The position numbers and the translations under genes were made by a program. A stretch of DNA of 64,000 nucleotides from an uncultured Verrucomicrobiota bacterium (GTDB taxonomy: Bacteria > Verrucomicrobiota > Verrucomicrobiia > Limisphaerales > UBA9464), in the NCBI GenBank assembly GCA_903916195.1, contig CAIWVP010000034.1, positions 3,575 through 67,574 on the forward strand, given 5' to 3'. Under the pieces are notes generated by a model. That model searched no databases. It saw nothing but the letters and a program-made list of their open reading frames with translations, and was not told where the DNA came from. How positions within the stretch are numbered: the stretch's first letter is position 1; every line of letters begins with the position of its first letter. Positions 2,086 through 45,303 of this stretch are shown here, in pieces.

Positions 2086-3444
2086 ATGAGAACGCGTGTC
2101 TCGTCCGCGTCGGCTGGCTTGCTCGCCGCCCTCCTGTGCGTCGCCGTGTCGGCCGATGCACCGGCGGCCTCCCATCATGCCGTGCCGTCCGAGGGCGCCG
2201 CCGTGGTCGGTCCGGCCTTGCTGGACCGCTACGCGGAAGCGCTGCGGGCACATCATCCGGCGGTGGCCGCTGTGGCGGCGCGGACCGAAGCGGCCGAGCT
2301 CGCCCTCGCCGGCACACGTCGGTTCGCGGACCCGACCTTCCGCTTGGGTGGCGGCCTGTTCGACGAACGGAACATGTCGGCCCGAGAAGAGGGCAACCTG
2401 GGCTACGGCATGGAGCAGAAGCTGCCCTTGCTCGGGAAGGAGCAGGCGGCCCGGTCGTCCGCGCGGGCCGAAGCGGAGGCCGCCGCGACCCGCGCCGAGG
2501 TGCGGTTCCAGGGCCTCCGCCGATCGCTCGCCCGGGCCCTGCACGCCGCGGCGCTCGCGGAGGAGACCGTCCGGCTCGGCCGCGAGGACCTGGCCTGGCT
2601 GGACACGACGGTGACCGCGGCCGAGGCCCGATATGCCGGCGGGACGGCCTCGCAGTTCGAGTTGCTCCGCGTCCAGAACGAGCGCTCGAAACGGGCGAAC
2701 CAGCTCGCCAACGACGAGCGCCGGCGCGACGCGGCCCGGGCGTTGGTGAACCACGCGCTGGGACGCGACCCTCTCGTGCCGTTGCCGGACCTCGTGCTGC
2801 CGCCGGTCGCCGGCGAGTTGGTCGGGTCGGACGCGTTGGTCGAGCGCGCCGTGCGCAACGCGCCGGACCTGCGCGTGCTCGCCCGCGAACGCCGCGTCGC
2901 CGAGGCGTCGGTCGAGGTCGCCCGGCGTTCGCAGCGGCCGGACATCGCGCTCGGCGTGGAAGGACGGCAGTTCGCCGGCGACGGCGGGTTCCGCAACGGC
3001 ACCTTCACCGTCAGCTTGAGCCTTCCTTGGTTCAACCGCGCCAACTACCGCCGTGATCTCGACCGGGAACGCGCGAAGCTCCGCGCCGCCGAAGCGGACC
3101 ACGCCGATGCCGCGGTGTCGGTGCGCAACGAGGTCCATCATCTCCTGGTCGAGACCGAGACGGCGCGCCGCGAGGCCCTTCTCTATCGCGACGACGTGGC
3201 GCCGCGGTCCGGCCAGGCGCTGGCCGCCGCGCACGCCGCCTGGTCCGGCGGCAAGGGCATGATGAACGACGTGCTCGAGGCCCGCCGCATGCGGGTCGAG
3301 GCGAAGCTCATGCTCGCCCGCGCGGTCGCGGCACAGCAGGACATGCTGAGCGACCTGTCCTTCGTCTGCGGCGTGGCCGACATCACCGCGCCCGATGTCG
3401 CACCCCTTTCCGCCGGTCCAGCAGCGATGCCCGCCCAACCTTGA
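2086..3444 (+). CDS. cusC: TolC-family outer membrane efflux protein (CusC/CzcC-like)
   Basis: Signal peptide, two OEP repeats (EQKLPLLGK; SLSLPWFNR), directly upstream of adaptor and RND genes. Confidence 0.85.
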   Translation: MRTRVSSASAGLLAALLCVAVSADAPAASHHAVPSEGAAVVGPALLDRYAEALRAHHPAVAAVAARTEAAELALAGTRRFADPTFRLGGGLFDERNMSAREEGNLGYGMEQKLPLLGKEQAARSSARAEAEAAATRAEVRFQGLRRSLARALHAAALAEETVRLGREDLAWLDTTVTAAEARYAGGTASQFELLRVQNERSKRANQLANDERRRDAARALVNHALGRDPLVPLPDLVLPPVAGELVGSDALVERAVRNAPDLRVLARERRVAEASVEVARRSQRPDIALGVEGRQFAGDGGFRNGTFTVSLSLPWFNRANYRRDLDRERAKLRAAEADHADAAVSVRNEVHHLLVETETARREALLYRDDVAPRSGQALAAAHAAWSGGKGMMNDVLEARRMRVEAKLMLARAVAAQQDMLSDLSFVCGVADITAPDVAPLSAGPAAMPAQP

Positions 3445-3448
3445 TCCT

Positions 3449-5233
3449 ATGAAGCTCCTCCTTCCCATCGTGGCCGCCGCCGTCGTGGCCGGCGCCATCG
3501 GTTGGTTCGCGCGCCCGCATCTGTCGCCGGGGGGCGGGCGTCCCGTCGCCGGACCCTCCGACGACGCTCCGGGCACCCGCCGGATCCTCTACTACCAATC
3601 GCCGATGCATCCATGGGTCCGCTCCGACCAGCCGGGCAGATGCACGGTGTGCGGCATGGACCTCGTGCCGGTCCGCGAAGGCGAGGCGCCCGCCGTCGAC
3701 GGACTGGTCACGCTCGGATCGAACGCCGTCACGGTCGTGGGCGTGCAGACCGAGGCGGTCCGCCGCCAACCGCTCGTGCGGACGCTCCGCTTCGCCGGCA
3801 CGATCGACGACGACGACTCGCGGCACCGCATCCTCGGCGCCTACCTCGACGGCCGCATCGAGGAGCTCTTCGTGAACAACGAGGGCGCGGAGATCGTCGC
3901 CGGCCAGCGCCTCGCGCGCTTCTACAGCCCGATGCTCCTGACCGCGGTGCGCGAATACGTGGCGCTCCGCAAGGACGCCTCGGCGGCGGGCGGTCCGCTG
4001 CTGCTCTCCGGCGCGGCGACCCGACTGCGGCAGCTGGGCCTGACCGACGCGCAGGTCCTGTCGTTGCCGACGACGTTCCGCGAGACCGACCTCGCGGTGG
4101 ACATCTTGGCGCCGATGAGCGGCACGGTGGTGAAACGCACCGTGTACGCCGGACAGCACGTGAAGGAAGGCGAACCATTGTTCGAGCTCGGGGACTTCAC
4201 GACGATGTGGTTCAAGTTCGACGCCTACGAACGCGACCTCGCGTGGCTCAGGCCGGGCCAAGCGGTCGAGATCACCACGGCGGCCCTGCCCGGACGCGTC
4301 TTCACCAACGCGGTGGCGTTCATCGATCCGAACGTCGACGCGGTGACCCGTAGCGCGAAGGTCCGCGTCGAGATCCCCAACCCGTCCTCGACGGTCGAGG
4401 GCCGCGCGGAACGGCTCTTCCGCCACCGCCTCTTCGCCGATGCGCGGGTACGGACGGTCGCGCCCGATGCGCTGTGCCTTCCGCGCACCGCCGTGCTCTC
4501 GACCGGCGGCGCGCCCGTCGCCTACGTCGAACGTGCGCCGGGTCACTATGAGGCACGTGCGCTGCGCCTCGGCCGCATCGGCGACGAGGTGGTCGAGGTG
4601 ACCGCCGGTCTGGCCGAAGGCGAACGCGTGGTGACGCAGGGCAACCTGCTCCTCGATTCGCAGAGCCAGATCGCCGGCGTACCGCGTCCAGAAGATCCCG
4701 CGGGCGATGACGCCGGCCCGGTCGCGTCGCCGCAGGCCAAGCCCGCCCCGGCCGCTCCGGTCGGCGGTCCGAGCGGCGGCGTGATCGCTCCCGGGGCGCA
4801 ACGCGCGGTGCGTGACTTTCTCAAGGCCGCGGACGCGGTGCGCGAGGCGTTGGCGGCGGACGACCTGACGCGCTTCAACGTCGCCGCGGCGGCGTTGCAT
4901 CCGGTCGTCGGTGCGCTGCCGGACATCGGCGCGCTCCCCGCGTTGGCCCGCGCCGGGAAGGCCGCGCATCTGCCGGAGGCCAAGGACCTCCCGTCGGCGC
5001 GGAAGTCGTTCTATCCGCTCAGCACGGATCTGGTGGAGGTCGTCCGCGGCCTCCGAGGGATGCCGGATATCGCCGCGGCATCCGCCGACGTGACCCTCTA
5101 CCAGTGCCCGATGGTGAAGCGCGCCTTCCCCGGGGCGCCGAAGACCGCCTCGTGGATCCAGCTCGGCGGGCCGGTGCGCAACCCGTGGTTCGGCGCCGAC
5201 ATGATCGATTGCGGCACCGAGCTAGGACGATGA
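3449..5233 (+). CDS. cusB: Heavy-metal efflux periplasmic adaptor (CusB-like) with N-terminal metal-binding motif and C-terminal DUF3347-like domain
   Basis: YYQSPMHP...CTVCGMDLVP, YSPMLL, biotinyl-lipoyl/beta-barrel MFP core, tail YQCPM...WIQ...VRNPWFGADMIDCG; start moved to ATG 3449. Confidence 0.88.
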   Translation: MKLLLPIVAAAVVAGAIGWFARPHLSPGGGRPVAGPSDDAPGTRRILYYQSPMHPWVRSDQPGRCTVCGMDLVPVREGEAPAVDGLVTLGSNAVTVVGVQTEAVRRQPLVRTLRFAGTIDDDDSRHRILGAYLDGRIEELFVNNEGAEIVAGQRLARFYSPMLLTAVREYVALRKDASAAGGPLLLSGAATRLRQLGLTDAQVLSLPTTFRETDLAVDILAPMSGTVVKRTVYAGQHVKEGEPLFELGDFTTMWFKFDAYERDLAWLRPGQAVEITTAALPGRVFTNAVAFIDPNVDAVTRSAKVRVEIPNPSSTVEGRAERLFRHRLFADARVRTVAPDALCLPRTAVLSTGGAPVAYVERAPGHYEARALRLGRIGDEVVEVTAGLAEGERVVTQGNLLLDSQSQIAGVPRPEDPAGDDAGPVASPQAKPAPAAPVGGPSGGVIAPGAQRAVRDFLKAADAVREALAADDLTRFNVAAAALHPVVGALPDIGALPALARAGKAAHLPEAKDLPSARKSFYPLSTDLVEVVRGLRGMPDIAAASADVTLYQCPMVKRAFPGAPKTASWIQLGGPVRNPWFGADMIDCGTELGR

Positions 5234-30858: not shown

Positions 30859-30948
30859 GCCGGCGCGACGCGGGCTCTCCTGCGATCGGGCGCGCTGCGG
30901 GCCGTTTCCGGGGTTGAAGCCGGACGCGGGTTGTCGCGTCATGCGGCC

Positions 30949-33900
30949 GTGCACCCGTTGTTCCGCTCCCGTTGCCTGCTCGCCGGCCTTCTCGTGTTCT
31001 TCGCCGGTCCGCCGGCCGCCCGCGCGGTCGACGCCCTGTTCGCGCCGACCAACCTCGTCGCGTGGTGCATCGTGCCGTTCGACACGAAGAAGCGCGGACC
31101 CGAGGAGCGTGCCGAGATGCTGCAGCGGCTCGGCATCCGGCGGCTCGCCTACGACTGGCGGTCCGAGCACGTGCCGACCTTCGACGCCGAGGTGGCGGCC
31201 CTCGGGAAGCGCGGCATCGAGCTGACCGCCTGGTGGTTCCCGGCCTCGCTCGACGACGAGGCCAAGGCCGTGCTGGATTGCCTCGCACGTCACAAGCTCA
31301 GCCCGCAGCTCTGGGTCACGATGGGCACCGAACCAGAGCCGGATGCCGCGAAGGTCGCCGCCAAGCTGGACGGCGCGGTCGCGACCCTCGCGCCGATCTG
31401 CGACGCGGCGCAGAAGATCGGGTCGACGGTCGGCCTGTACAACCATCTCGGCTGGTTCGGGGAACCGACGAACCAGGTGGCCATCGTCCGGCGCCTGCGC
31501 GCCGCCGGCCATCCGAACGTCGGCATCGTCTACAACTTTCACCACGGCCACTCCCATATCGAGGATTTCGCCGCGGTGCTCCGTCTCGTGCAGCCCTTCC
31601 TGCTCGCGGTGAACCTCGACGGCATGGTCCGGGACGGCGACCGCACGGGGAAGAAGATCATCCCGCTCGGCACCGGCGACGAGGAGGTCGACATGGTCCG
31701 CACGCTGCGCGCGAGCGGATGGAGCGGCCCGGTCGGCATCCTCGGCCACACCGAGGAGGACGCCGAGGTGAAGCTGCGTAAGGAGCTCGACGGCCTCAAG
31801 GTCGTGCTCGCCCAGCTGGACGCGCCGCCGAAGCCCAAGGCTCCGCGTCCGTCGCGCGCCGCGGCGGGCCTCCTGCCTCCGGCCTCGACGGCGGTGCGGC
31901 CTGGGAAGTCCGGTCCGGCGCTCGACGCGCGGGTGACAGGCCTGGTGCTCGACGGGAAACCATGGTTCCGCCAGCCGCCGATCCGCGTCACCGCCAAGGT
32001 GCGCTTCGGCAGCAAGGCGCAGTTCAACATCATCGCCGCGAGCGAGGCCAAGTCCTCGCCTTCTCACTGGGAACTCTACACCTACACGGGCACCGGCGAA
32101 CTCAGCATGTACGTGCCCGGCGTGACGCCGTCCGAATTGCGCTCGGGCCGGGACGTCTGCGACGGCCAGTGGCACACGATCGTGATGCATTTCGCGCGCG
32201 AGGCGGTCCGGTTGTCGGTGGATGGCGCCGAGGTCGCACGGGCTTCCATCAAGCGGGATACCGAAGGCGACGGTACCGCGGCGCAGATCGCGGTCGGCCG
32301 GCTCGTCGAGGGCGGCCTCGGTTGCGATGGTTGGATCGAGGACCTGCAGGTGACGGAGCAGGGGACCGGCAAGGGCGAGACGGTGTCGCTGGCGGTCTGG
32401 CGCAAGAGCGACGGGTCGGAAGCGGATCTCACGGCCCTGCCACGGCCCACCGCTCCCGCGGTCGGCGGATCCAAGAGCGCGGCCAGACCGGTCGCGAAGG
32501 CCGGCGTGGGCGAGCCGGCCATCTCCGGTCGCGAGGCGTCGACGCAGGGCGAAGCCGATTGGAACGACAACCGCTGGCAACAGACCGACGTGGGGCCGTT
32601 TCTGGCGTCGACCTTGATGTTCCCCGAAGGCGCGGTGGCCAAAGGGCTCACCATCAAGGTCGGCGACCACGGCGAAGGCGCGGTCGCCTACGACATGGCC
32701 ACCGGCGCGTTGCGCGCGGCGTGGACCGGCGGGTTCCTCCAGTTCAGCCCGGTGCGGTTCGGGCTCATCCGCGCGCCGCAGCCGGCCGGCAAGCTGGCCT
32801 TCACCGCGGTCGATGGGACCGCATCCTCGACCGGGGCATCGTACCGCTATGTGGGACTCCATCGGGGCGACCGCCGCACCGTGCTCGAGCACGCGTTCGA
32901 CGGCGTCCGGGTGCTAGAGGTCCCGGGACTGGAAAACACTCCGGCCGGCCCGGTGTTCCGCCGGACCTTCTGGGTCGACCGCCACGCCCAGCCGCTCCGC
33001 ATGGTCGCAGCCGGGCATCTCCGCGGCACGACGAACGTCGTCAGCGCCTCCTCCGAGCACCGGAAGGTCGACGACACAGCCCGGACCGACGTCACCGTGC
33101 ATCGCCAGCTCGACCAGAACCAGGAAGGCGACACCATTTCGGCCGCGGTCGTGACCGGCGTCCACATCGCTTCTTCCGCGAACTACATCGCCGAAAGCGG
33201 CGGCTGGAAGGACATCGTGCTCCCGGCGAGCGACAAGCCCGTGGTGTTCTCGGTGCTGCTGTGGCGCGGGACGGAAGCGGCGTCCGGCGAGTTCAAGAAG
33301 TTCGCCGAGGCATCGGTGCCGACCGAGGACCCTAGCCGGCTGCTGCGGCCTTCGCCGTCGCGCTGGCCGGCGCGGACCACCCGCGGCCAACTTGGGGCGG
33401 ACACGGACATCCTCGCGGTCGACACGCTCACCCTGCCGTACGACAACCCGTGGAAGGCCCTGCTGTTCGCGTCCGGCGTGGACTTCGGACCCGACGGCGC
33501 GGCCTACGTCTGCACCCTCCACGGCGACGTGTGGCGCGTGACGGGCATCGACGACTCCTTGCGCGAGCTCACGTGGAAGCGCTACGCGACCGGGCTGTTC
33601 CAGCCGCTCGGCCTGCGGGTCCGCGACGGAAAGGTGCTCGTGCTCGGACGCGACCGGATCACCCGGCTCCACGACGAGGACGGCGATGGCGAAGCGGACT
33701 TCTACGAGAGCTTCACCGATTCCATCGCCACGTCGGCCGGCGGCCACGACTACGTCACCTGCCTCGAAGCCGACGCGGCGGGCAACCTCTACTACGTCGA
33801 CCCGAAAGGCATCCACCGGGTCTCGCCCGACGGTCGTACCAACATCACCTTGGCCACCGGTTGGCGGAACCCGAACGGCATGGGCGTCCGGCCCGACGGT

Positions 33901-34728
33901 CTCCTCACGGTCGCGCCGCAGCAGGGCGAGTGGACGCCATCGTCGCAGATCAGCGAGGTCCGGCCCGGAGGCTACTACGGCTACGGCGGCCCGAAGATCA
34001 CCGCCGAGCGGGCGCTCGGCTACGATGCGCCGTTGTGCTGGATCCCGCACGCGGTCGACAACTCCAGCGGATCGCAGGTCTGGTTGCCTCGCAGCGCGTG
34101 GGGGCCGCTCGGCGGGCAGATGCTCCATCTGCTCTGGGGCCGCTGCGGCATGATGTCCGTGCTGCGGGACACCGTGGGCGACGTTTCGCAAGGCGCGGTC
34201 GTGCCGTTGCCGGTGAAGCTCCTCAGCGGCCCGAACCGCGCGACCTTCAACGCCCGCGACGGCGCGCTCTACGTGGCGGGCAGCACCGGTTGGCAGACCA
34301 GCGCAGTGAAGGACGGCGCGCTCCAACGCGTCCGGTGGACCGGGCGTCCCGCCCATCTCCCCGTCAAATGGCACGCCCATGCCAACGGCATCACGGTCAC
34401 CTTCAGCGAACCGCTGAAGCGGGACACCGCGGAGGATGCCGGCAGCTACGCGGTGAAACGTTGGAACTACCGCTACGCCGCGCAGTACGGGTCGAAGGAC
34501 TGGTCGGTCGCGCAGCCCGGCAAGGAAGGCCGCGACGACGTCCCGATCAGATCCGCGAAGCTGCTCGCCGACGGCCGCACGGTGTTCCTTGACCTCGGCG
34601 ACCTCGCGCCGGTGATGCAGATGGAGCTGAAGTGGAACCTCGACGCCGTCGACGGCAAAACGACGCGCAGCCAGTTGTGGCTGACGTTGAACCAACTGGA
34701 CACGGCATTCGCCGGCGGCGCCCGTTGA
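30949..34728 (+). CDS. Large secreted multidomain protein: sugar isomerase-like TIM barrel + LamG-like + DUF6797-like/beta-propeller region
   Basis: LVAWCIVPFD, LYNH, YNFHHGH (TIM barrel); DGQWHTIV (LamG); GDVWRV, GLFQPLGL, TGWRNPNG, PLCWIP...DNSSG, WNYRY..YGS; GTG start inferred. Confidence 0.8.
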   Translation: MHPLFRSRCLLAGLLVFFAGPPAARAVDALFAPTNLVAWCIVPFDTKKRGPEERAEMLQRLGIRRLAYDWRSEHVPTFDAEVAALGKRGIELTAWWFPASLDDEAKAVLDCLARHKLSPQLWVTMGTEPEPDAAKVAAKLDGAVATLAPICDAAQKIGSTVGLYNHLGWFGEPTNQVAIVRRLRAAGHPNVGIVYNFHHGHSHIEDFAAVLRLVQPFLLAVNLDGMVRDGDRTGKKIIPLGTGDEEVDMVRTLRASGWSGPVGILGHTEEDAEVKLRKELDGLKVVLAQLDAPPKPKAPRPSRAAAGLLPPASTAVRPGKSGPALDARVTGLVLDGKPWFRQPPIRVTAKVRFGSKAQFNIIAASEAKSSPSHWELYTYTGTGELSMYVPGVTPSELRSGRDVCDGQWHTIVMHFAREAVRLSVDGAEVARASIKRDTEGDGTAAQIAVGRLVEGGLGCDGWIEDLQVTEQGTGKGETVSLAVWRKSDGSEADLTALPRPTAPAVGGSKSAARPVAKAGVGEPAISGREASTQGEADWNDNRWQQTDVGPFLASTLMFPEGAVAKGLTIKVGDHGEGAVAYDMATGALRAAWTGGFLQFSPVRFGLIRAPQPAGKLAFTAVDGTASSTGASYRYVGLHRGDRRTVLEHAFDGVRVLEVPGLENTPAGPVFRRTFWVDRHAQPLRMVAAGHLRGTTNVVSASSEHRKVDDTARTDVTVHRQLDQNQEGDTISAAVVTGVHIASSANYIAESGGWKDIVLPASDKPVVFSVLLWRGTEAASGEFKKFAEASVPTEDPSRLLRPSPSRWPARTTRGQLGADTDILAVDTLTLPYDNPWKALLFASGVDFGPDGAAYVCTLHGDVWRVTGIDDSLRELTWKRYATGLFQPLGLRVRDGKVLVLGRDRITRLHDEDGDGEADFYESFTDSIATSAGGHDYVTCLEADAAGNLYYVDPKGIHRVSPDGRTNITLATGWRNPNGMGVRPDGLLTVAPQQGEWTPSSQISEVRPGGYYGYGGPKITAERALGYDAPLCWIPHAVDNSSGSQVWLPRSAWGPLGGQMLHLLWGRCGMMSVLRDTVGDVSQGAVVPLPVKLLSGPNRATFNARDGALYVAGSTGWQTSAVKDGALQRVRWTGRPAHLPVKWHAHANGITVTFSEPLKRDTAEDAGSYAVKRWNYRYAAQYGSKDWSVAQPGKEGRDDVPIRSAKLLADGRTVFLDLGDLAPVMQMELKWNLDAVDGKTTRSQLWLTLNQLDTAFAGGAR

Positions 34729-34844
34729 AGGGCGGGGCGCCGGCGCGTCAGGGTGTTTTTTCTCGGCACGGCAACTTCCCCGGCCCTAAGATGCTTTATA
34801 GGACGATACAAGTTCCCTGGGCCACCACCAACGCGAGAACGGCT

Positions 34845-35681
34845 ATGAGGCTGAACCTGGCAGGGCGGAACGCAATCTTGACGGGCGCCAACGGCGGCCT
34901 CGGAGTCCATTTCACGGCGGCATTGTCAAAGGCGGGGATGAACCTGCTCCTCGTCGCCTATCCCGGCATCGGTCTCGAAGACGTGCAAGCGGCGGCGCGC
35001 AAGGATTCGGTCCAGGCCGAGATCCTGGTGGCGGACCTGAGGGTGCCCGAGGAGCGGACCCGCGTGGTCGAGACGGCGATGGCGCGATTCGGGTCGATCG
35101 ATCTGCTGGTGAACAACGCCGGGGTCGAGTTCTCGTCCACCTACCACGACCTCGATGTCGACCGGATCCGCGACGTCATCAACGTCAATCTGGAGGCGCC
35201 GATGATGCTCACCCGGTTGGCGTTGCCGCACATGCTCCGGCAAAGACGCGGCCACATCGTGAACATCTCGTCGCTCGCCGGGAAATCGGGGCCGGGTTAC
35301 CAGGAACCCTACGTCGCCACGAAAGCGGGCCTGAGCGCGTTCACGCTGTCCCTCCGCAACACATATCGCGGCACCGGTGTGAGCGCGTCGGTCATCACGC
35401 CGGGTTTCGTCGAGGCGGGGATCTATTCCCGGCTCAAGGTCCAGACCGGTCGGTCCGCGCCCATCTTCCTCGGGGCCTGTTCGCCCCAGAAGGTCTGCGC
35501 CGCCTTGTTGCGGGCCGTCCGCGACGACGTGCCGGAGGTCATCGTGAACCGGTATCCGATCCGTCCGGTGCTGGCGCTGACCACATTGTTCCCCGCGTTC
35601 GGTGAATGGATGACCGAATGGACCGGCACGAACGCGTTCTTCCGCCGTGCCCACGAGGCCTCCAAACACCCGGAAGCATGA
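34845..35681 (+). CDS. Short-chain dehydrogenase/reductase
   Basis: TGANGGLG, LVNNAG, NISSLAG, YVATK catalytic motif, PGFV; start at ATG 34845. Confidence 0.92.
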   Translation: MRLNLAGRNAILTGANGGLGVHFTAALSKAGMNLLLVAYPGIGLEDVQAAARKDSVQAEILVADLRVPEERTRVVETAMARFGSIDLLVNNAGVEFSSTYHDLDVDRIRDVINVNLEAPMMLTRLALPHMLRQRRGHIVNISSLAGKSGPGYQEPYVATKAGLSAFTLSLRNTYRGTGVSASVITPGFVEAGIYSRLKVQTGRSAPIFLGACSPQKVCAALLRAVRDDVPEVIVNRYPIRPVLALTTLFPAFGEWMTEWTGTNAFFRRAHEASKHPEA

Positions 35682-35772
35682 CGACCCACCCCGGATCCCG
35701 CCCACGGCTGCGGCCAAATGGGCCCCGAGCCTTCCCTGACGGACATCGCTTTACCATCCCTAGACTCAACGA

Positions 35773-35802
35773 TTGCCCAACATGATATCGAAGGGTTAAA
35801 AT
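35773..35802 (+). promoter_or_regulatory. Candidate sigma70 promoter giving a leaderless fadL transcript
   Basis: TTGCCC-18 bp-TAAAAT in an AT-rich patch; ATG lies 7 nt after the -10; no SD. Confidence 0.45.
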
Positions 35803-35809
35803 TATAGAC

Positions 35810-37033
35810 ATGTCCAAAACGCCCCATCCTCGCCGTCTTCTGTCCGCTGCCGTCTGCTTGGCGGCGACGTTCGTCCCGGCGCATGCCGGTGGTTTCCGAC
35901 TCCCGGACCAGGATGCCTTCGCCACGGCCCGAGGTGAAGCGTTCGCTGCGACCGCCGACAACCCGTCGGCGGTCTACTACAACCCGGCCGGCATCACACA
36001 ACTCGAAGGCCATCAGGCGCGATTCGGCGTCTATGGGATCGACCTCGGGGTGAGCTACACCTCACCTGCCGGGAAGAAGCACGACAACAGCAAGGACCTC
36101 CACGCCGTCCCGCAGATCTTCTACACCTTCACCCCCGAAAAATCGCCGGTCTCGTTCGGCTTCGGAGCGTATTCACCCTATGGCCTGAGCTCGGAGTGGC
36201 CGGAGGACACGGGATTCCGCAGCGTGGTGCTGGGCGGAAAGCTGACCTACCTGACACTCAACCCCGTGGTCGCGTGGCAGATCACGCCGACATTATCCAT
36301 CGGCGGCGGAGCGATGATCAACTACGCCGAAGCCGACCTGCGGAGCGGTCTGTCGCCGATCGCGGGTGTCGGCCAGTCGCGGCTGAACGGCTCCGGCTGG
36401 GCGCCGGGGTTCAACGCGGGGATCCTCTGGAAACTCTGCGAGAAGGTGCAGATCGGCCTGAATTACCGGAGTGAATCGCGGATCCCGCTGGACGGCTACC
36501 TCGATATCACATCGCCGGTCTTCAGCGCGCATCCGGATGCCAAGGCCGAGCTCCCGTTCCCGCAGACCTTCGTCGCCGGCATCTCATATCGGCCGACGCC
36601 GGATTGGAACCTGGAGTTCGACATCGAGTGGAACGACTGGAACCGGCTCAACTCGATGAGCGTCCACGCGCCGCAGGCGCCGTTCCTGGACTCGGCGATC
36701 GCGTTCAACTGGCAGTCGAGCTTCTACTACGAGTTCGGAGCCACCCGGCACCTCGGGGGCGGCTGGTCCGTCAGCGCCGGGTACATCTTCAACGAGAACT
36801 CGGTGCCCGACCACGACTTCACGCCGCTGGTCTCGGACTTGGACCGGCATTTCGTGAGCTTCGGCGGGGGCTACAAGCATGGCCGGCTGAGCGTGGACCT
36901 CGCCTACCAGCTCGGCTACGGGCCGACGAGGACCGTCACCGGCAACCCGGTGAACTCCTCCGGCCAATCAGCGAACGGCGAGTACGACTTCCTCAGCCAC
37001 GCGCTGCTCTTGAGCATGGGCTGGCATTTCTGA
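35810..37033 (+). CDS. fadL: FadL/OmpP1/TodX-family outer membrane long-chain fatty acid channel
   Basis: Signal peptide, GGF...ATARGEAF.ATADNPSAVYYNPAG plug motif, PYGLSSEW, LTLNPVVA, terminal Phe. Confidence 0.93.
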   Translation: MSKTPHPRRLLSAAVCLAATFVPAHAGGFRLPDQDAFATARGEAFAATADNPSAVYYNPAGITQLEGHQARFGVYGIDLGVSYTSPAGKKHDNSKDLHAVPQIFYTFTPEKSPVSFGFGAYSPYGLSSEWPEDTGFRSVVLGGKLTYLTLNPVVAWQITPTLSIGGGAMINYAEADLRSGLSPIAGVGQSRLNGSGWAPGFNAGILWKLCEKVQIGLNYRSESRIPLDGYLDITSPVFSAHPDAKAELPFPQTFVAGISYRPTPDWNLEFDIEWNDWNRLNSMSVHAPQAPFLDSAIAFNWQSSFYYEFGATRHLGGGWSVSAGYIFNENSVPDHDFTPLVSDLDRHFVSFGGGYKHGRLSVDLAYQLGYGPTRTVTGNPVNSSGQSANGEYDFLSHALLLSMGWHF

Positions 37034-37143
37034 CATGCTGTACGGACGGTACCGCCCGCTTCCGACGGGTGGCGCGGCGATCCGATGGGCCGTGGCCGGC
37101 GTGGACCACGCCCGACAGGACAACTTGCTTTAGACCGATCCGC

Positions 37144-38577
37144 ATGGCGACGAAACCGACAGGTACCTTATCGGGCGAGCGAGAGAGCTTCATCAGCTGC
37201 CGCAACAGCCAGGGCGCGGAGGTCCGGGCCACGCCGGTGCGCCTGACCCGCTTCACCGTGGTGCTCGAGGTCTACAACCCGTTCAGCATCGTCCAGATCT
37301 CCGAGGTGCTGAGCGAGTTCCGGATCACGATGAACGACCGGCTGGTCTATTCCGGCCGCGCCGTCGTGAGCAACATCGTCAACACCGGCATCATGGTGTT
37401 GTGCGAGGCCACGCTGGACGATTCATGGCTCGACGTGGACATGTTCTCGTCGTCCGCCCATCCGGGGCGGCTACGGGACGAGTTCGGCGAGTTCCTCCAA
37501 GAATGGCAGAAGATCCATAGCGTCACCCCCGGCTTCAAGGTCGTGGTGGCCGACATGCAGACGCTGCTCGCCGACCTGCGGCGGTGGATGGAGCAGGTGG
37601 AGCTGGGCATCCGTTCGTCACCCGGAGGGAACCGGGCCTTGCTTGAACGCGACGTGATCACCGACCTGAGCCAACCGGTGCTGACGGTGATCGACGAGTT
37701 GTTCGACCGGTTCGAATCGATCGCCGGCTCCTTGGATCCCGCGCTGCAGCCGATGCACCGGAACTATATCAAGCGACAACTGCATCCGCTGGTGCTCTGC
37801 GCGCCGTTCGCCTACCGCACGTTCCAGAAGCCGCTCGGGTACGCCGGCGACTACGAGATGGTGAACATGATCCTCCGCGACCCGTTCGAGGGCGGCTCTC
37901 TGTTCGCCAAGACCGTCAACCTCTACTTCCTCAACTCCGCCCCGGCCCTCGCCCACCGCAACCGCATCAAGTACCTGGTGCAGGTCCTCTCGGCCGAGGC
38001 CCGCCGCACCTCGGCCGAAGGACGACCTGTCCGCATCCTCAACCTGGGCTGCGGACCCGCCGGCGAGATCCAGCAGTTGCTGGCGACCGATCCAGTCGTG
38101 GACCAGATGGATTTCACGTTGATGGATTTCAACGACGAGACGCTCGATTTCACGCGGCACCGCTTGGATGCACTGAAGGTCCAGCACGGGCGCCGGACGC
38201 CGCTCCAGTTCGTCAAGAAATCCGTCCACCAGGTCCTCAAGGAAGGTTCGCGGCCCGAGCACGGCCAGCCGCGCTACGACCTCATCTACTGCGCCGGCCT
38301 GTTCGACTACCTCTCCGACCGGATCTGCCAGCGGTTGATGACCATCTTCTACGAGATGCTCGCCCCTGGAGGGCTGCTCGTCGCCACCAACGTCGATCCG
38401 AGCAACCCTTCTCGGAACGGCATGGAGTTCATCCTCGACTGGCATCTCGTCTACCGTGACCGCGAGCAGCTGAAGCTGCTCCATCCGTCAGGCGTGCCCG
38501 ACGAGAACATCGTCAGCCGCGCGGATGAGACGGGCGTCAACATCTACCTTGAAGTCCGCCGTCCCATCGATCGTTGA
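37144..38577 (+). CDS. phcB: PhcB-like class I SAM-dependent methyltransferase (putative hydroxy fatty acid methyl ester signal synthase)
   Basis: RTFQKPLGYAGDYEMVN, AHRNRI, RILNLGCGPA, YDLIYCAGLFDYLSD, DWHLVYR; about 477 aa; followed by sensor kinase and REC proteins. Confidence 0.78.
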   Translation: MATKPTGTLSGERESFISCRNSQGAEVRATPVRLTRFTVVLEVYNPFSIVQISEVLSEFRITMNDRLVYSGRAVVSNIVNTGIMVLCEATLDDSWLDVDMFSSSAHPGRLRDEFGEFLQEWQKIHSVTPGFKVVVADMQTLLADLRRWMEQVELGIRSSPGGNRALLERDVITDLSQPVLTVIDELFDRFESIAGSLDPALQPMHRNYIKRQLHPLVLCAPFAYRTFQKPLGYAGDYEMVNMILRDPFEGGSLFAKTVNLYFLNSAPALAHRNRIKYLVQVLSAEARRTSAEGRPVRILNLGCGPAGEIQQLLATDPVVDQMDFTLMDFNDETLDFTRHRLDALKVQHGRRTPLQFVKKSVHQVLKEGSRPEHGQPRYDLIYCAGLFDYLSDRICQRLMTIFYEMLAPGGLLVATNVDPSNPSRNGMEFILDWHLVYRDREQLKLLHPSGVPDENIVSRADETGVNIYLEVRRPIDR

Positions 38578-41236
38578 CGGCGGACCGGAGGCCGATGCGG
38601 CGTTCCAGGAGGCCTTCCACTCAGAGGACCTCCGGGAGCGCCTCCGCATCGGGAAGCTCGGCTGCGCGCTGGTCATCGTCCTGATGCCCCTCGGGGCCTC
38701 GCTGGACTACGTCGTCTACAAGGACGACGTCGCGGTGTTCCAGTTCTTCCTCGGGCTCCGGCTCCTGTGCTCGCTGGTCACGGGCGCGTTGCTGGCCGTC
38801 CACCACACCCGGTGGGGCGAGCGGAACGTGCGGATGCTCGGCCCGTTCATCGCGCTCCTGCCCGCCGTGTGCATCGCCGGCATGATCGGTCACAAGGATC
38901 AGTGGGGATCCCACTACTACGCCGGCCTGAACCTCGTCCTCATCGCCGTCAACGTCGTCGCCCGCTGGACCGTCCGCGAATCGCTCGCCATCGTCGGCAG
39001 CGTCGTCGCGTTCTACCTCTCGGCATGCCTCATCGGGACCGGCTGGCCAGAGGCCCCCGGGCAGCGGCAGGACCTCTTCAACAACCTGTACTTCCTCACG
39101 TTGACAGGTGTGATCGTGGTCGCCGGCAACTGGCTCTACAACCAGCTCCGGGAGCGCGAGTTCGCCCTCCGGTACGAGCTCGGCAAGAACCAGCGCCAGC
39201 TGCAGGAGGCCAACCAGAAGCTGCGCGACCTCGACGAGGTGAAGAGCCGTTTCTTCGCCAACATCAGCCACGAGCTCCGCACCCCGCTCACGCTGCTGCT
39301 CGGGCCGCTCGACGCGCTCATCCGGCAGCGGGGCCGCCTCGGCGAGCCGGAGATCGACGAGCACCTGGAGACGATGCACGGGAACGGTCTCCGCCTGCTC
39401 AAGCTCATCAACGACCTGCTCGACCTCGTCCGCCTCGACTCCGGGCATATCGCCCTACGACGCGAGGCCGTGCCGCTCTCCCAGTTCTTCGGCGGCGTGG
39501 TCAACTCGACCCGCAAGCTCGCCGAGGACCGCCGGATCCAGCTCCGCCTCGTCCTCGACGACCAGATGGGCCGCGCGATGCTCGACCCGGACAAGCTGGA
39601 GAAGGTCCTGTTCAACCTCATCATCAACGCGATCAAGTTCACCGCGAGCGGCGGCACGATCACCTGCCACCCCGAGCGCCACGGCGACGAGATGGTCATC
39701 GAGGTGAGCGACAGCGGCGTCGGCATCCGGTCGGACGACCTCCCGCACATCTTCGACCGGTTCTGGCAGGCCGACACCAGTTCCCAACGCAAGCACCAGG
39801 GCACCGGTATCGGCCTCGCGCTCGTGAAGGAACTGGTCGAGGCGCAGGGAGGTCATGTGACGGTCGCCAGCGAGGTCGACAAGGGCACGACCTTCACCAT
39901 CACCCTGCCATGGATCGATCCGCCCCGGACCGATCCACACGCCCAGCCGGTCACTGTGCTCCCGCCGGCCGGGCCGGCCGAACCGCAGGACGCTTGGCTG
40001 GTCAGTCTCTATCGCAGGGCGGAGCTCTTCCCGGGGATCGCCCCGCTCAAGGAGAGCCTGAGGCCCGACACCATGTCGTCCACCGACCACCGGCCACGGA
40101 TTCTCATCGCGGACGACGAGCCGGACATGTTGCGGTTCCTGCGGTCCCAACTTTCCGGGCAGTTCCAGGTGTTCGAAGCGGTGGACGGACAGCAGGCGAT
40201 CGAGAAGGCCGCCCAGTTCCTGCCGGACATCATCCTTTGCGACATGATGATGCCGGAGAAGGACGGCCTGGACGTCTGCCGCGAGGTCCGCGCGCGGTTC
40301 CCGACCCGCAACATCCCCATCGTGCTGCTCACCGCACGGGCCGACGACGAGACCAAGCTCGCAGCGCTGGCCGCCGGCGCGAATGACTTCCTGTCCAAGC
40401 CGTTCTCGACGACCGAGCTCCGGATCCGCCTCAAGAACCTGGTCGACGCCCAGAGGCTCCAGAAGGAGCTGGCCTGGCAGAACCAGAAGCTGCAATCGAC
40501 CCTCGAGCAGCTGAAGGAGACCGAATCGCAGCTCGTGCAATCCGAGAAGATGGCCTCGCTCGGCCGCATGAGCGCCGGGATAATACACGAGATCAACAAC
40601 CCGCTGAACTATGCCAAGACGGGCATCTTCACGCTCCAGAAGATGGGCCGCTCGATGCCGCCCGGCGAGATCGCCGATTTCGAGGAGATCCTCCATGACA
40701 TCGGCGACGGGCTCACCCGTGTGGCCGGGATCGTCGGCGACCTGAGGGCTTTCACCCATCCCCACGGCGGGGCGATGGAGGATGTGGATGTCCGCGCCGT
40801 CGCGGCCGGCGCGCTGCGGTTCCTCGCGGCCGAGACCAAGGATGTCGCGATCGACAACGCCATCCCGCCGGGTTTCCGGGTGAGGGCGAACCGCAACAAG
40901 CTCATCCAGGTCTTCGTCAACCTGCTCCAGAACGCCGTCGACGCGCTCGGCGAGAAGCGGTTCAGCGACGGCGAGACCGCCCGGATCGTGCTCGGGGCCG
41001 AGGCCACGGACACCGCCCGGACCGTCACGTTCCACGACAACGGCCCCGGGATGGATACCGATATTTTGGACAAGATTTTTGACCCGTTCTTCACCACCAA
41101 GGAGGTAGGCAAGGGCACCGGGCTCGGATTGAGCATCTGCTACCGCATCATCAACGAGGCCGGCGGGCGCATCACAGCCCAGAGCGAGCCAGGAAAGTGG
41201 ACCGAATTTGCATTGGAGTTCCCGACGACAGTGTGA
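38525..41236 (+). CDS. Membrane hybrid histidine kinase TM-HisKA-HATPase-REC-HisKA-HATPase (PhcS-like; start uncertain)
   Basis: About 6 hydrophobic segments; [25 protein letters not shown]; REC ADDE/CDMMMP/SKPF; [24 protein letters not shown]. Confidence 0.93.
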
Positions 41237-41268: not shown

Positions 41269-42534
41269 ATGGATCCCCACTACGATTACAAGCGATACGC
41301 CGTCCTTTATGTGGATGACGAGGAGAAGTCCCTGAAGGGCTTCGATCGCGGCTTCAAGGACACTTTCCGCATCCTCACGGCGACCAACGCCGACGATGCC
41401 CTGCGCTTGATCGAGACCCAAGGTGATGAGATCGGCGTCATCATGTCCGACCAGCGGATGCCCGGCATGAAGGGCGTGCAGTTCCTGGAGCGCTCGCGCC
41501 AGCTCCGGCCCAAGACCGTCCGCATCCTCGCGACCGCCTTCACCGACCTGGATGCCGCCATCAGCTCGGTCAACAACGGCGCCATCTACAAGTACGTCTC
41601 CAAGCCCTGGGAACCGTACGAGCTGGACCACGTGCTCAAACGTGCCCTCGAGTTCTACACGGTCCAGAACGAGCGAGACCAACTGCTGCGCGAGAAGATG
41701 TCGGTGCTGCACAAGATGGTGATCACCGACCGCGTGCTCAGCCTCGGGGTGCTCGCCGCCGGCCTCGGCCACCACGTGCGCAACGCGATGTCGGCCGTCC
41801 GCACCTTCCTCGACCTCGCGCCCGAGATGCTCCACCGCGAGAGCCTCGATCTCAACCAGCTCCACCACCCGGCTTTCTGGCAAGATTTCCACCACAAGGT
41901 GCAGGGTCGTGTGAAGCTGCTCGTCGACCTGCTCGACGACCTCTCCGACCACACGCAACCGGGACCGTTCCAGTTCGACAGCGAGATCGGTCTGCGCGAC
42001 GTGATCTCCGACGGGGTGACCGAGATCGGTCTCGAGCTGGCCGGCCGCCGCATCCAGGTCATCAACGATATCCCGTCGGATCTGCCGCGCCTGCTCGTCG
42101 ACCTTCCGAAGATCCGCAAACTCTTCCAGCTCCTCCTCCGCGACGAGCTGACCAACCTCCAGGACGGCGCAACCATCCGGTTCGAGGCCGCTGCCCGCGA
42201 GGCCACCGCTCTCCAGCCTGCCGGTGTCGAGCTCTTGATCCAGGACGACGGACCGGGCCTCCCCCAGGCCTCGATCATGGCGGTCTTCGACCCGTTCTTC
42301 GTCCGGAACGACAGCCCGGACGAGTTCGGGATCTACCTCATGGCGTGCTACTTCATCGTGTACCATCATGGCGGCACGATCCATGTGGGACCGGGCAAGG
42401 ACGGAGGCCTCGCGTTCCGCATCTGGCTCCCGTTGGCGCCCGGCATCGGGACGGCGAGCGAAGAGAACGCAGATTTCCTTGTCCGGGTGATGACCAACGA
42501 ACGGCTTTGGGAACGCCTGCTCGCGACCCCCTGA
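41269..42534 (+). CDS. REC + degenerate histidine-kinase-like protein (PhcR/PhcQ-like)
   Basis: YVDDE, SDQRMP, SKPW; H-box-like GHHVRNAM; DDGPG and FDPFF kept, N and G2 boxes degenerate. Confidence 0.85.
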   Translation: MDPHYDYKRYAVLYVDDEEKSLKGFDRGFKDTFRILTATNADDALRLIETQGDEIGVIMSDQRMPGMKGVQFLERSRQLRPKTVRILATAFTDLDAAISSVNNGAIYKYVSKPWEPYELDHVLKRALEFYTVQNERDQLLREKMSVLHKMVITDRVLSLGVLAAGLGHHVRNAMSAVRTFLDLAPEMLHRESLDLNQLHHPAFWQDFHHKVQGRVKLLVDLLDDLSDHTQPGPFQFDSEIGLRDVISDGVTEIGLELAGRRIQVINDIPSDLPRLLVDLPKIRKLFQLLLRDELTNLQDGATIRFEAAAREATALQPAGVELLIQDDGPGLPQASIMAVFDPFFVRNDSPDEFGIYLMACYFIVYHHGGTIHVGPGKDGGLAFRIWLPLAPGIGTASEENADFLVRVMTNERLWERLLATP

Positions 42535-42546
42535 GCCTCCGGATGT

Positions 42547-43827
42547 ATGTCGCCACCCCCCTCCATGCACCCGGTCCGCGCCGGCGGCGTCCTGACGGCG
42601 GACAGCCCGGCGTTGCCGCCGCTGCCCGTGCGCCGTCCCGTGCTGCTCGTGGTCGACGACGACGAGCCGCTGCGGCAGGCGTTGCGGCTCATCTTCGAGT
42701 ACCAATACGAGGTCGTGCTCGCCGCGTCCGGACCGCACGCGCTCTCGCTGATCCAGCGCGGGCTCTTCGATGTCGCGGTCGTGGACATCCGCATGCCCGG
42801 CATGTCGGGCTTCGAGTTCCTCGAGCGCTCGCGGACGGTGGACCCCGACATCCAGACGGTGATCCTCAGCGGGCAGAGCACCTTCGAGATGGCCCGCCAA
42901 GCGGTGCGGCTCGATGCGTTCGATTTCCTGCCGAAGCCGTTCGACTTGCAGGTGCTGCGGCAGACCATCCAACAGGCGGCCCGGCGACGCGCATGGCTGC
43001 GGTTCGAGAAGAAACGCGAGGCGGCGCTCCAGCGCGCGGTGACCGCCGCGGAGACGGCCGCGCAGGAACGTGACCTGCTGGTCAGCCTCTTGTCCGAATT
43101 CCGCGCCCCGCTCAACTCGATCTCCGCGGGGGCGGCAGCCCTGGACCAGGAGTTGACCCGGCAATCCACACCCTCCGAGCCGCAGGTCGCGGCGTGGCGC
43201 CACCAGCTCCAGGAGCTCGGCCGCCAAGCGACCCTCTGTGTCCAGTTGGCGGGCGGCCCCCGGCAGGACCTCTCGTCGCCCGGTCCGCCCGAAGGCGTGC
43301 CAGCCGTGCAGGTGATGGACGACCTGGGACGCTTGCTCCGCGTGCACCCGGCGTCCAAGGGCCACCAGCTCACGATCCGCCCGCCCGCGCTGCCCGCGGG
43401 CTTGAAGGCGCGGGAGGCGGACCTGCTCCGCATCCTGGTGAACCTCGGCCGCAACGCGCTCGAATCCTCCGAGGTGCCGCACCGCGTGGACTTCGAATCG
43501 TGGCTGGTCAACGAACCGGTCCTGCTCGACGGCCCTGAACGTTCCCAAGGCCGCTTCGTGCTGCGCGAGACGTTCGAGAACCGTCCGCCCCTGCTCGCGA
43601 TCGCGGTCAAGGACGACGGCCCGGGGATCTCGCCGGAAATTTGGCCGCACCTCTTCCAAACCGCTGTCACGACCAAGCCCGGCAGGGGCGATGTCGGCCT
43701 CGGACTCACCTCGGTGCGGGACCTCGTCGCCGCCACCGGATGCGCCCTGGAGATCCGCAGCGAGCCCGGATCCGGGACCACGGCCACGCTCTACGTGCCG
43801 GTCGTCCGCCCGGTGGACCCTTCGTAG
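42547..43827 (+). CDS. REC + histidine-kinase-like protein lacking the phospho-His
   Basis: VVDDD, VDIRMP, PKPF; H-box LSEFRAPL; NLGRNALES, DDGPGI, TTK, VGLGL. Confidence 0.85.
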   Translation: MSPPPSMHPVRAGGVLTADSPALPPLPVRRPVLLVVDDDEPLRQALRLIFEYQYEVVLAASGPHALSLIQRGLFDVAVVDIRMPGMSGFEFLERSRTVDPDIQTVILSGQSTFEMARQAVRLDAFDFLPKPFDLQVLRQTIQQAARRRAWLRFEKKREAALQRAVTAAETAAQERDLLVSLLSEFRAPLNSISAGAAALDQELTRQSTPSEPQVAAWRHQLQELGRQATLCVQLAGGPRQDLSSPGPPEGVPAVQVMDDLGRLLRVHPASKGHQLTIRPPALPAGLKAREADLLRILVNLGRNALESSEVPHRVDFESWLVNEPVLLDGPERSQGRFVLRETFENRPPLLAIAVKDDGPGISPEIWPHLFQTAVTTKPGRGDVGLGLTSVRDLVAATGCALEIRSEPGSGTTATLYVPVVRPVDPS

Positions 43828-43891: not shown

Positions 43892-45303
43892 ATGCGCAGA
43901 ACCAAGATCATCGCCACGCTCGGGCCCGCCACCGACTCGTCCGAGATGCTCGGACGCCTCATCGACGCGGGCATGGACTCGCCCGGCTGAACATGTCCCA
44001 CGCCACGCCCGATTGGGTGCGCCGCGTCGTGAAGGACATCCGCGCCCACTCCAAGGCGCGCGGCGTCGCCATCGGGATCCTGCTCGACACCCAAGGCCCC
44101 GCGATCCGCACCGGCGATGTGCCGGCGAAGATCCCCCTCGCGGTCGGTGACCGCTTCGTCTTCACCGTCCAAGGCGACTCGCTCCGTCCCGACGAAGGTG
44201 TCAAGGGCACGTCCGTCGGCTACGACGGGTTCGCGGCGGACGTCGAGGTCGGCAAGACGCTGATCGTGGACAACGGCGAGCTGCGGATGCGCATCCTCTC
44301 CAAGACAGCCACACGGGTCGTGTGCGAAGTGCTCACCGAGGGGCAGATGGGCAGCCGACGCCACATCAACCTCCCCGGCGTCCGCGTCTCGCTCCCTGCG
44401 TTGACCGACAAGGACAAGGCCGACGTGGAGCTCGGGCTCGAGGTCGGGGTCGATTTCATCGCGCTCAGCTTCGTCCGCGATCCCGATGACATGGCGCAGC
44501 TGCGCGCGCTCGTGGCCGGTTCGCCGCACCAGCCCAAGCTCATCGCCAAGATCGAGCACCAGTTCGCGGTGGACCACTTCGAGGCCATCGCCCGGGCCTC
44601 CGACGGCGTGATGGTCGCGCGGGGCGACCTGGGCATCGAGTGCCCGTACGAGGAGCTGCCGATCATCCAGCGCCGCATCGTCAAGAAGTGCCAGGAGATC
44701 GGCCGCCCGGTGATCGTCGCAACGCATCTGCTCGAGAGCATGATCACGAACCCGATGCCCACGCGCGCGGAGATCACCGACGTGGCGAACGCCGTGTTCG
44801 AGCAGGCCGACGCCATCATGCTCAGCGGCGAGACGACCGTGGGGAAGTACCCGCTCCAGTGCATCGAGGTGTTCGACACCGTCACCCGCCGCATCGAGCG
44901 GAGCGGTGGAGCCGATTACCACCACGCCGCCGAGCTCACGTCGCCGCGGCAGAAGCTCGTGAAGAGCGCGGTGCTGCTCGCCGACGAACTGAAGGCCGCC
45001 GCCATCGTGGTCTTCACCCGGCGCGGCCACATGGCCCGCTACGTCTCGTGGCTCCGGCCGCGTTTTTCCCCCATCTACGCCTTCGCCGACCGCTGGACGA
45101 CCGCGGAATCCCTCGCGATCTGCCGCGGCGTCGTGCCTGGTGTCGTCCCGTTCACCCACGCGGAACCGGACAAGACCGTCGACGCCGCCCTCGCGTCGCT
45201 GATGGCGAAAGGCCGACTCAAGCGCGGCGATGCCGTCGTCGTGCTCAGCATCGTCACCGCCGGCGACCAGCTCGTGGACGCGGTGACGATGCGCGTGATC
45301 TGA
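43892..45303 (+). pseudogene. pyk: Pyruvate kinase, interrupted by a 1-base frameshift near 43979 (real or sequencing error)
   Basis: MRRTKIIATLGPA...AGMD in one frame, ARLNMSH...DTQGPAIRTG, AKIE, MVARGDLG, DAIMLSGET in the next. Confidence 0.9.

Follow-up and report, generated by a model that had tools for sequence, protein, structure and literature searches.

In histidine kinases under Rec control (Rec-HKs), a receiver (Rec) domain is followed by a signalling helix, a dimerization and histidine phosphotransfer (DHp) domain and a catalytic and ATP-binding (CA) domain, and phosphorylation of the receiver is described to make the signalling helices zip up as a coiled coil and to free the CA domain (PMC13269768). 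For LvrB of Leptospira, the same source describes autophosphorylation of His161 once the receiver has been phosphorylated and then phosphorylation of LvrC, and it names PhcR as a Rec-HK (PMC13269768). PhcQ is presented as a receiver joined to an uncharacterised C-terminal part; its deletion is described to reduce signal production, and an interaction with PhcB is suggested in Ralstonia (PMC6989110). PhcQ is also described to bind PhcA and to keep it stable (PMC13320629). Here we analyse two adjacent genes in 64,000 nucleotides (nt) of DNA from an uncultured Verrucomicrobiota bacterium (contig CAIWVP010000034.1); we refer to this whole stretch as the window. The first gene encodes P1, a PhcQ-like Rec-controlled pseudokinase of 421 amino acids (aa; 41269..42534, + strand), and the second encodes P2, an accessory Rec-DHp-CA protein of 426 aa that lacks the acceptor histidine (42547..43827, + strand).

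Our main reading, to which we give a probability of about 0.6, is that P1 and P2 are the last genes of a Phc-type signalling operon and act as two separate phosphate-receiving switches. P1 would descend from a Rec-controlled histidine kinase with Rec-DHp-CA architecture, of the LvrB or PhcR type; its ATP site would have been disabled long ago, leaving a histidine that is vestigial or at most facultative. P2 would be a second Rec-kinase that joined the operon in some lineages only. The complementary defects of the two proteins would then be two unrelated events of different age and no designed split. This differs from the initial annotation, which had seen in the pair either a split kinase that works only when both partners are present (an AND gate) or a ChpT-like phosphotransferase, P1, with P2 as an allosteric or phosphatase partner.

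Kinase motifs of P1 and P2

For the kinase motifs we aligned both proteins with PhcR of Cupriavidus and with the second, intact kinase module of P3, the sensor kinase encoded directly upstream of P1. The order receiver, signalling helix, DHp and CA is supported in both P1 and P2 by Pfam, and for P1 also by a structural model. P1 matches Response_reg (1.8e-15) and HATPase_c (2.2e-09), with HisKA below the cut-off at 0.017, and P2 matches Response_reg (8.6e-25) and HATPase_c (1.5e-13), with no HisKA match. No NCBIfam model reached its cut-off for P1, P2 or P3, the matches to LvrA-like and LvrB-like models lying far below it.

P1 consists of a receiver (aa 12-122, 41302-41634), a signalling helix and DHp domain (aa 126-235, 41644-41973), a CA-like domain (aa 236-395, 41974-42453) and a conserved C-terminal helix (aa 396-421, 42454-42531). 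Codon 41770 is the first CAC of GGC CTC GGC CAC CAC GTG CGC AAC (G L G H H V R N) and encodes His168 (41770-41772) at the position of the acceptor histidine, a position that is variable across the P1 family. The N-box site, where NLLQNA would be expected, reads LLLRDE, with the magnesium-binding Asn changed to Asp292 (42142-42144), and EFGIYLM replaces the G2 box GxGLGL; the G1 (DDGPG) and F (FDPFF) boxes are retained. P2 consists of a receiver (aa 34-141, 42646-42969), a DHp domain (aa about 150-250, 42994-43296) and a CA domain with N, G1 and G2 boxes (aa 290-419, 43414-43803) that read NLGRNA, DDGPG and VGLGL. Its codon 43093 is TCC, within TTG TCC GAA TTC CGC (L S E F R; context LLSEFRAPL), and Ser183 (43093-43095) thus takes the place of the histidine. 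A complete ATP site (N, G1 and G2) is therefore present in P2 and absent from P1. The acidic pair, acceptor Asp, Thr or Ser and Lys of a receiver are present in both proteins.

The initial annotation had read these motifs correctly. It had described P1 as keeping the H-box histidine and losing the N-box Asn and the G2 box, and P2 as having intact N, G1 and G2 boxes with Ser at the histidine site, encoded by a TCC that is two changes from a His codon (CAC or CAT). Its view that both receivers look phosphorylatable, and that both proteins are pseudokinase-like with Rec-DHp-CA architecture, also agrees with our alignments. Judged by these motifs, neither P1 nor P2 alone would be able to run the full kinase reaction.

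Both sets of defects are conserved across many species, which answers the question raised with the initial annotation of whether orthologues share them. P1 orthologues are present in 36 of 61 related genomes (the window's own counted) at 40-95% identity. For a close view we used 120 homologues, made up of 119 database proteins and the P1 of the window. The acceptor Asp and the Lys of the receiver are found in 120/120. At the N-box position we counted 82 Asp, 17 His, 14 Glu and only 7 Asn. The G1 box holds Asp326 in 119/120 and Gly328 and Gly330 in 120/120, and the replacement of the G2 box (EFGIxLM) and the C-terminal helix (F403, N410, W414) are nearly invariant. The canonical histidine is kept in 94/120, with Arg (11), Gln (10) or Asn (5) elsewhere. 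For a broad view we ran a profile search against 1.84 billion cluster representatives, which returned 4415 P1 relatives at E 1e-30 or better; among the best 150 of these 4415 (50% cluster level), 124 are full length. Of these 124, 121 retain the acceptor Asp, 56 the canonical histidine, 16 the N-box Asn and 49 the G1 Asp, and about eight are ordinary intact Rec-kinases. Across the P1 family, then, the receiver appears to stay constant as kinase residues erode.

These counts bear on whether P1 could still be a weak Rec-controlled kinase, with Asp292 acting as a metal ligand and the G1 and F boxes binding ATP. In favour are a G1 box that does not vary among close homologues, a retained F box, the His168 of this genome and an overall fold closest to LvrB. 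The G2 box and the ATP lid, however, are replaced by a different conserved sequence, the P1 model is poorly ordered at this replacement (predicted local distance difference test score, pLDDT, <50 at residues 332-351), and many members of the family have no histidine. EnvZ with the corresponding Asn-to-Asp change loses its kinase activity. We consider a residual kinase activity of P1 highly improbable.

Relatives of P2 are few: a search of 5.8 billion proteins yielded 25 full-length homologues. A close group of 22 sequences including the window (49-96% identity) can be set against a distant group of nine (34-40% identity). In the close group 21 of the 22 lack the histidine and have Ser, Asn, Gly or Ala instead, and the N, G1 and G2 boxes are retained, along with the receiver residues, in all full-length members (21/21). 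All nine distant sequences have the histidine, within an HDLNG H box. The histidine state of P2 changes once when mapped on the P1 tree, and the loss would accordingly have occurred once, in the ancestor of the window's genus. Strain-specific decay, which the initial annotation had named as the finding that would undo its proposal, does not fit a loss shared by 21 of 22 close homologues, traced to a single event and accompanied by conserved ATP boxes.

Ratios of nonsynonymous to synonymous substitution rates (dN/dS) against three relatives are 0.17-0.30 for P1 and P2. The lowest values in P1 belong to the signalling helix and DHp (0.02-0.18). P2 has 0.23-0.30 overall and 0.05-0.22 in the receiver, which is its most conserved part; the DHp domain is its least conserved. 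Both genes are under purifying selection and neither is decaying. A view of P2 as a decaying remnant without function could appeal to the lost histidine, to an H-box region that varies among species (S, N, G, A) and to the lack of P2 in most operons. It is countered by the overall and receiver dN/dS values, by a reading frame that is open, with no frameshifts or stops seen in eight genus-level loci, and by receiver residues and ATP boxes that are conserved down to 49% identity. We give it hardly any credence.

Several further observations concern P2 and its relatives. One protein of the close group (P0128, 66% identical to P2) is the sole member with a histidine, within SRLHELVSPL, and this could be a retained ancestral state or a reversion. 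Several distant homologues have degenerate receivers. Six P2 relatives from other genera (L014, L018, L019, L021, P0142 and P0143) keep the histidine and the ATP boxes and have receivers that have lost the acidic pair, and in L014 the acceptor Asp is Ser. Erosion has run in the opposite direction in the window's genus, where the receiver is intact and the histidine is lost. Matches to P2-like genes of other genera in genomes G033, G014, G035, G050 and G048 were reported with one in-frame TAG or TGA, and at L010 (G015; 2706-4031, - strand) the P2-like gene is split into two open reading frames. Real breaks, edge effects of the matches and read-through are all possible for the in-frame stops.

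Relation to Phc operons and PhcQ

The genes in the window run in the order short-chain dehydrogenase (SDR), FadL-type channel, PhcB-like methyltransferase, PhcS-like P3, P1 and P2. P3, P1 and P2 all lie on one strand, with gaps of 32 nt between P3 and P1 and 12 nt between P1 and P2. The methyltransferase (37069..38577, + strand; Pfam Methyltransf_12/25/23), which depends on S-adenosylmethionine, is the presumed signal synthase. The order methyltransferase, P3, P1 recurs in 15/15 larger loci with P1 called and upstream DNA available, a count that omits L034, L040, L042 and L046 (P1 uncalled, 4/20 larger loci) and L050 (no upstream DNA). In 29 of 30 loci the gene immediately before P1 is P3-like, and the thirtieth begins at a contig end. 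Five relatives without P1, whose assemblies are 93-96% complete, gave no match to the methyltransferase either.

Ralstonia edaphi, R. condita, two Ralstonia sp. and Cupriavidus necator have a four-gene operon whose first gene product is 42-44% identical to the methyltransferase (alignments of 455-457 aa, E about 1e-126 to 1e-133). The gene lengths of this Ralstonia and Cupriavidus operon match those published for PhcB, PhcR and PhcQ, as given in PMC8578825. A gene on a Paraburkholderia graminis plasmid shows 40% identity to the methyltransferase over 91% of its length, and is followed by a gene for a 445-aa kinase and then by two response regulator genes.

P3 is a PhcS-type sensor kinase of 903 aa (38525..41236, + strand) with two HisKA, two HATPase_c and one Response_reg match in Pfam. 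It is built from a membrane domain (aa 30-210, 38612-39154), an inserted kinase A (aa 240-462, 39242-39910), a receiver (aa 526-636, 40100-40432) and a PhcS-type kinase core B (aa 660-900, 40502-41224). The membrane domain and core B align to PhcS-like proteins, and the insert sits between them. Two relatives have a short P3 form of 456-464 aa before P1 (L047, 6676-8043; L048, 6616-8007). Along its whole length the 456-aa form (relative G059) can be aligned with Cupriavidus PhcS (33%, E 4e-78); between its kinase core and the second core of P3, identity is 51%. Because the membrane domain and core B align to PhcS and short forms exist, P3 appears to be a PhcS-type sensor into which an extra DHp-CA-receiver block has been inserted (aa about 215-645). 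In 15/15 long-form orthologues, neither the two kinase modules nor the receiver has lost a motif.

Of the 120 P1 homologues, 36 bear the JGI name "probable response regulator PhcQ". Taken together, the homologies make it highly likely to us that the operon is of the Phc type, a homologue of phcB-phcS-(phcR)-phcQ of Ralstonia, Cupriavidus and Paraburkholderia. We found no Phc-type system in Verrucomicrobia in the papers searched; those listed with Phc terms deal with the R. solanacearum species complex, among them one on experimentally evolved symbiotic Ralstonia, or in a single case with Cupriavidus taiwanensis alongside Ralstonia.

The phcBSRQ quorum-sensing operon of the R. solanacearum species complex has homologues in Cupriavidus, Paraburkholderia, other Ralstonia and Oxalobacteraceae. 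By BLAST, P1 is 37-42% identical to PhcQ-like proteins over 156-176 aa and 23-25% identical to PhcR-like proteins, and the similarity to PhcQ spans the receiver, the long helix and the first DHp helix. Profile comparison with hhalign aligned P1 residues 13-209 to the PhcQ profile at E 2.2e-43. A tree of the receiver and signalling helix groups P1 and PhcQ as sisters (SH-like support 0.996) and places PhcR next (0.979), with the receivers of P2 and P3 outside this group. Cupriavidus PhcR has the full set of kinase motifs; Cupriavidus PhcQ has neither the histidine nor the boxes.

The AlphaFold model of P1 (pLDDT 71.9) has a receiver, a helix of 50 residues, a hairpin of helices and an alpha/beta domain, and in the models of both P1 and PhcQ the hairpin is followed by a small alpha/beta domain and a terminal helix with an invariant Trp. 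The best PDB match of the P1 model is full-length LvrB (8vc9, E 4e-17), and further fold matches are the kinase cores of ZraS, HK853, CckA, DivL and RetS. In whole-model searches with PhcQ (Foldseek and VIA) and with P1 (VIA), the matches listed were essentially all to receivers. An Arg at the junction of signalling helix and DHp (R155 in P1, 41731-41733) is invariant in 45/45 alignment rows, comprising the window and 44 homologues, and corresponds to R154 in the PhcQ of R. edaphi and R. condita (L269 and L275, 5474-6481). The change R154C in Ralstonia PhcQ is described to behave as a deletion (PMC6989110). By way of the R. edaphi and R. condita sequences, R155 is probably the residue affected by this published change.

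We conclude that P1 is very probably the verrucomicrobial counterpart of PhcQ, as judged from its sequence and gene context. Like PhcQ it comes last, P2 aside, after a PhcB-like methyltransferase and a PhcS-like kinase; the two have a homologous receiver, signalling helix and first DHp helix and form sister clades; neither has a DNA-binding domain; and both carry the invariant Arg at the junction of helix and DHp. P1 differs in being about 85 aa longer and in that its HATPase_c domain, with G1 and F boxes, can still be recognised; it usually has the histidine too, whereas PhcQ has no histidine and no boxes. In effect P1 resembles a PhcQ in which descent from a Rec-kinase remains visible. With LvrB and PhcR it shares the order Rec, signalling helix, DHp and CA, and LvrB is the best match of its model. 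The distant relatives of P2 and Cupriavidus PhcR hold all the kinase motifs; P1 differs from them in lacking the N-box Asn and the G2 box, and P2 in lacking the histidine. Another kinase fold without an acceptor histidine, reused as a binding or sensing module, is that of the pseudo-histidine kinase DivL from Caulobacter (4q20; PMC4211667), which is among the P1 matches. DivL has Tyr at the histidine site, PAS domains and no receiver, and it binds phosphorylated DivK.

ChpT offers a different precedent. It combines a DHp domain bearing a histidine with a CA-like domain that does not bind ATP, it has no receiver, and its histidine is needed. As a ChpT-like phosphotransferase, P1 would use His168 to relay phosphate from the receiver of P3 or P2 to another receiver, and its CA-like domain would be a docking surface only. 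The combination in P1 of a DHp with histidine and a CA-like domain with a disabled ATP site follows the ChpT design, the signalling helix and DHp are the most constrained part of the protein (dN/dS 0.02-0.18), and His168 is present in 52 of 79 surveyed orthologues. The histidine is nonetheless dispensable across the P1 family: it is absent in 26/120 close and 68/124 broad homologues and there is none in PhcQ. P1 also has a receiver of its own, fully conserved, which ChpT lacks, and the operon holds no additional conserved response regulator. Loci without P2 share no other conserved gene behind P1. As a function of the P1 family, the phosphotransferase role suggested in the initial annotation fits poorly with a histidine kept in only 94/120 and 56/124 and missing altogether from PhcQ, and we think it improbable for P1 itself.

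P1 and P2 across related loci

We surveyed 110 loci, of which 85 have a full-length P1; 81 of these are unique and 79 have enough downstream DNA to show whether P2 follows. An adjacent P2 of any kind is present in 28/79. It has its own histidine in 20/79 loci, and there P1 has His168 in 20/20. It lacks the histidine in 8/79, and there P1 has His168 in 4/8. The remaining 51/79 have no adjacent P2, and P1 has His168 in 28/51. The N-box and G2 defects of P1 are present in all three settings. Since P1 is degenerate with or without P2, it degenerated before P2 lost its histidine and independently of that loss. Some genomes carry P2-like genes on other contigs, unlinked to P1. P1 and P2 are only about 21% identical, and their receivers belong to different clades.

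In a split kinase confined to this species and its nearest relatives, the ATP-binding domain of P2 would phosphorylate His168 of P1 in trans, within a heterodimer or a transient complex, and output would need both receivers to be switched on, as in an AND gate. Such an arrangement is known from CheA3 and CheA4 of Rhodobacter sphaeroides, where one partner has the histidine and the other the ATP-binding domain. Those partners are of the CheA class and interdependent, whereas P1 mostly occurs without P2. Complementary defects are seen at four of the eight loci with a histidine-less P2, namely the window, L002, L003 and L005; the ATP boxes of P2 are kept in 21/21 full-length close homologues despite the lost histidine; P1 has His168 in all 20 loci with a histidine-bearing P2; and the gap between the two genes is 12 nt. 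At the other four of the eight loci (L006-L009), however, P1 has Gln at the canonical histidine, P2 is likewise without histidine, and the ATP boxes of P2 are still conserved. The ATP-site defects of P1 are order-wide and predate the loss of the P2 histidine, and 51/79 loci have no adjacent P2. With about 21% identity and receivers in different clades, a DHp heterodimer is not expected from likeness, and the DHp is the least conserved part of P2.

The association between His168 and P2 is the main point that hints at some link between P1 and P2. On the tree, His168 changes five times and P2 adjacency six times, and only two supported independent pairs result, too few to give statistical power; for this reason the association is inseparable from shared ancestry. 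The idea of an obligate split kinase or AND gate, as put forward in the initial annotation, finds no support, given the P1 defects found without an adjacent P2 in 51/79 loci and beside a histidine-bearing P2 in 20/79, and the Gln at the canonical histidine in four of the eight P1 proteins that accompany a histidine-less P2. We think it quite likely that P1 and P2 do not form an obligate split kinase, and unlikely that the two make up a split kinase in the window's species and those nearest to it. It also seems improbable that two independent losses created by accident a working split Rec-kinase from the ATP domain of P2 and the histidine of P1; if true, a Phc-type lipid-signal pathway would here end in a natural AND gate with two inputs, made of pseudokinases.

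Proposed signalling path and its meaning

Under our main reading, in which P1 and P2 are separate switches, the methyltransferase would make a hydrophobic methyl-ester signal, the FadL channel would help it to cross the outer membrane, and the membrane domain of P3 would sense it. P3 is the only protein of the operon with complete kinase sites, and these intact motifs suggest that it could autophosphorylate and hand phosphate to the receivers of P1 and P2. By analogy with LvrB, phosphorylation of the P1 receiver would rearrange the signalling helix and DHp, so that the CA-like domain and C-terminal helix would become free to engage a putative protein target. The P2 receiver may compete for the same phosphate as a sink, or P2 may modulate P3 or P1, with the ATP-binding domain of P2 serving as a conformational module. 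This role of P2 is the weakest step and we propose it only tentatively.

Several points weigh against this scheme. Each of its phosphotransfer steps is one that we infer. A sink leaves the conservation of the N, G1 and G2 boxes of P2 without a histidine unexplained, and such conservation would be in keeping with a domain that continues to phosphorylate some target in trans. P1 may also bind nucleotide, given the invariant G1 box and an Asp that may act as a metal ligand at the Asn site. For the C-terminal halves of P1 and PhcQ, homology could not be demonstrated with hhalign (E 0.4). The Phc link runs through non-solanacearum Ralstonia, Cupriavidus, JGI names and statements in papers. Of the loci kept in contig scans, none carried an R. 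solanacearum label: one scan gave almost exclusively Verrucomicrobiota-labelled metagenome-assembled genomes, another Paraburkholderia, Cupriavidus and relatives with no Ralstonia locus, and a third other species of Ralstonia. Finally, raw counts tie His168 of P1 to P2 (20/20, 4/8 and 28/51 in the three settings).

The string of genes begins with the SDR (34677..35678, + strand; Pfam adh_short 1.2e-45), which possibly has a part in signal synthesis and which precedes the FadL gene in several relatives as well. The FadL/TodX-type outer-membrane channel for hydrophobic molecules follows (35810..37030, + strand; Pfam Toluene_X 3.5e-56), and a FadL-family gene adjoins the methyltransferase in most of 15 syntenic loci. 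Together these two genes (34677-37030) may serve the synthesis and passage of a signal resembling a 3-hydroxy fatty-acid methyl ester. Upstream of the operon lies a gene for a 1265-aa protein with a xylose-isomerase-like TIM barrel, Laminin_G_3 and DUF6797 (30931-34725). A pyruvate kinase gene (43993-45303) starts 165 nt after P2 and is likewise the next gene at the genus-level loci L031, L032 and L033. A scan for promoters and terminators gave counts not above those of shuffled controls, which speaks neither for nor against co-transcription.

Rec-controlled kinases, PhcR, PhcQ and pseudokinases without histidine such as DivL are already known, as are split kinases of the CheA type. New here are P1 as an intermediate form between PhcQ and Rec-kinases, a genus-wide Rec-kinase without histidine and with a conserved ATP site, P2, and the evidence against the pair being one split enzyme. 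PhcQ is a key and poorly understood quorum-sensing regulator in an important group of plant pathogens, and P1 shows the most likely ancestry of its uncharacterised C-terminal part, namely the DHp-CA core of a Rec-controlled kinase. P1 thereby offers a less eroded relative of PhcQ for structural and biochemical work with harmless bacteria, and its family is a clear natural case of a kinase becoming an adaptor controlled by phosphorylation. P2, with about 25 full-length homologues, is a rarer case, and its ATP site without a histidine raises the question of what role that site has. The operon as a whole adds to the evidence for widespread Phc-type methyl-ester signalling in Verrucomicrobiota.

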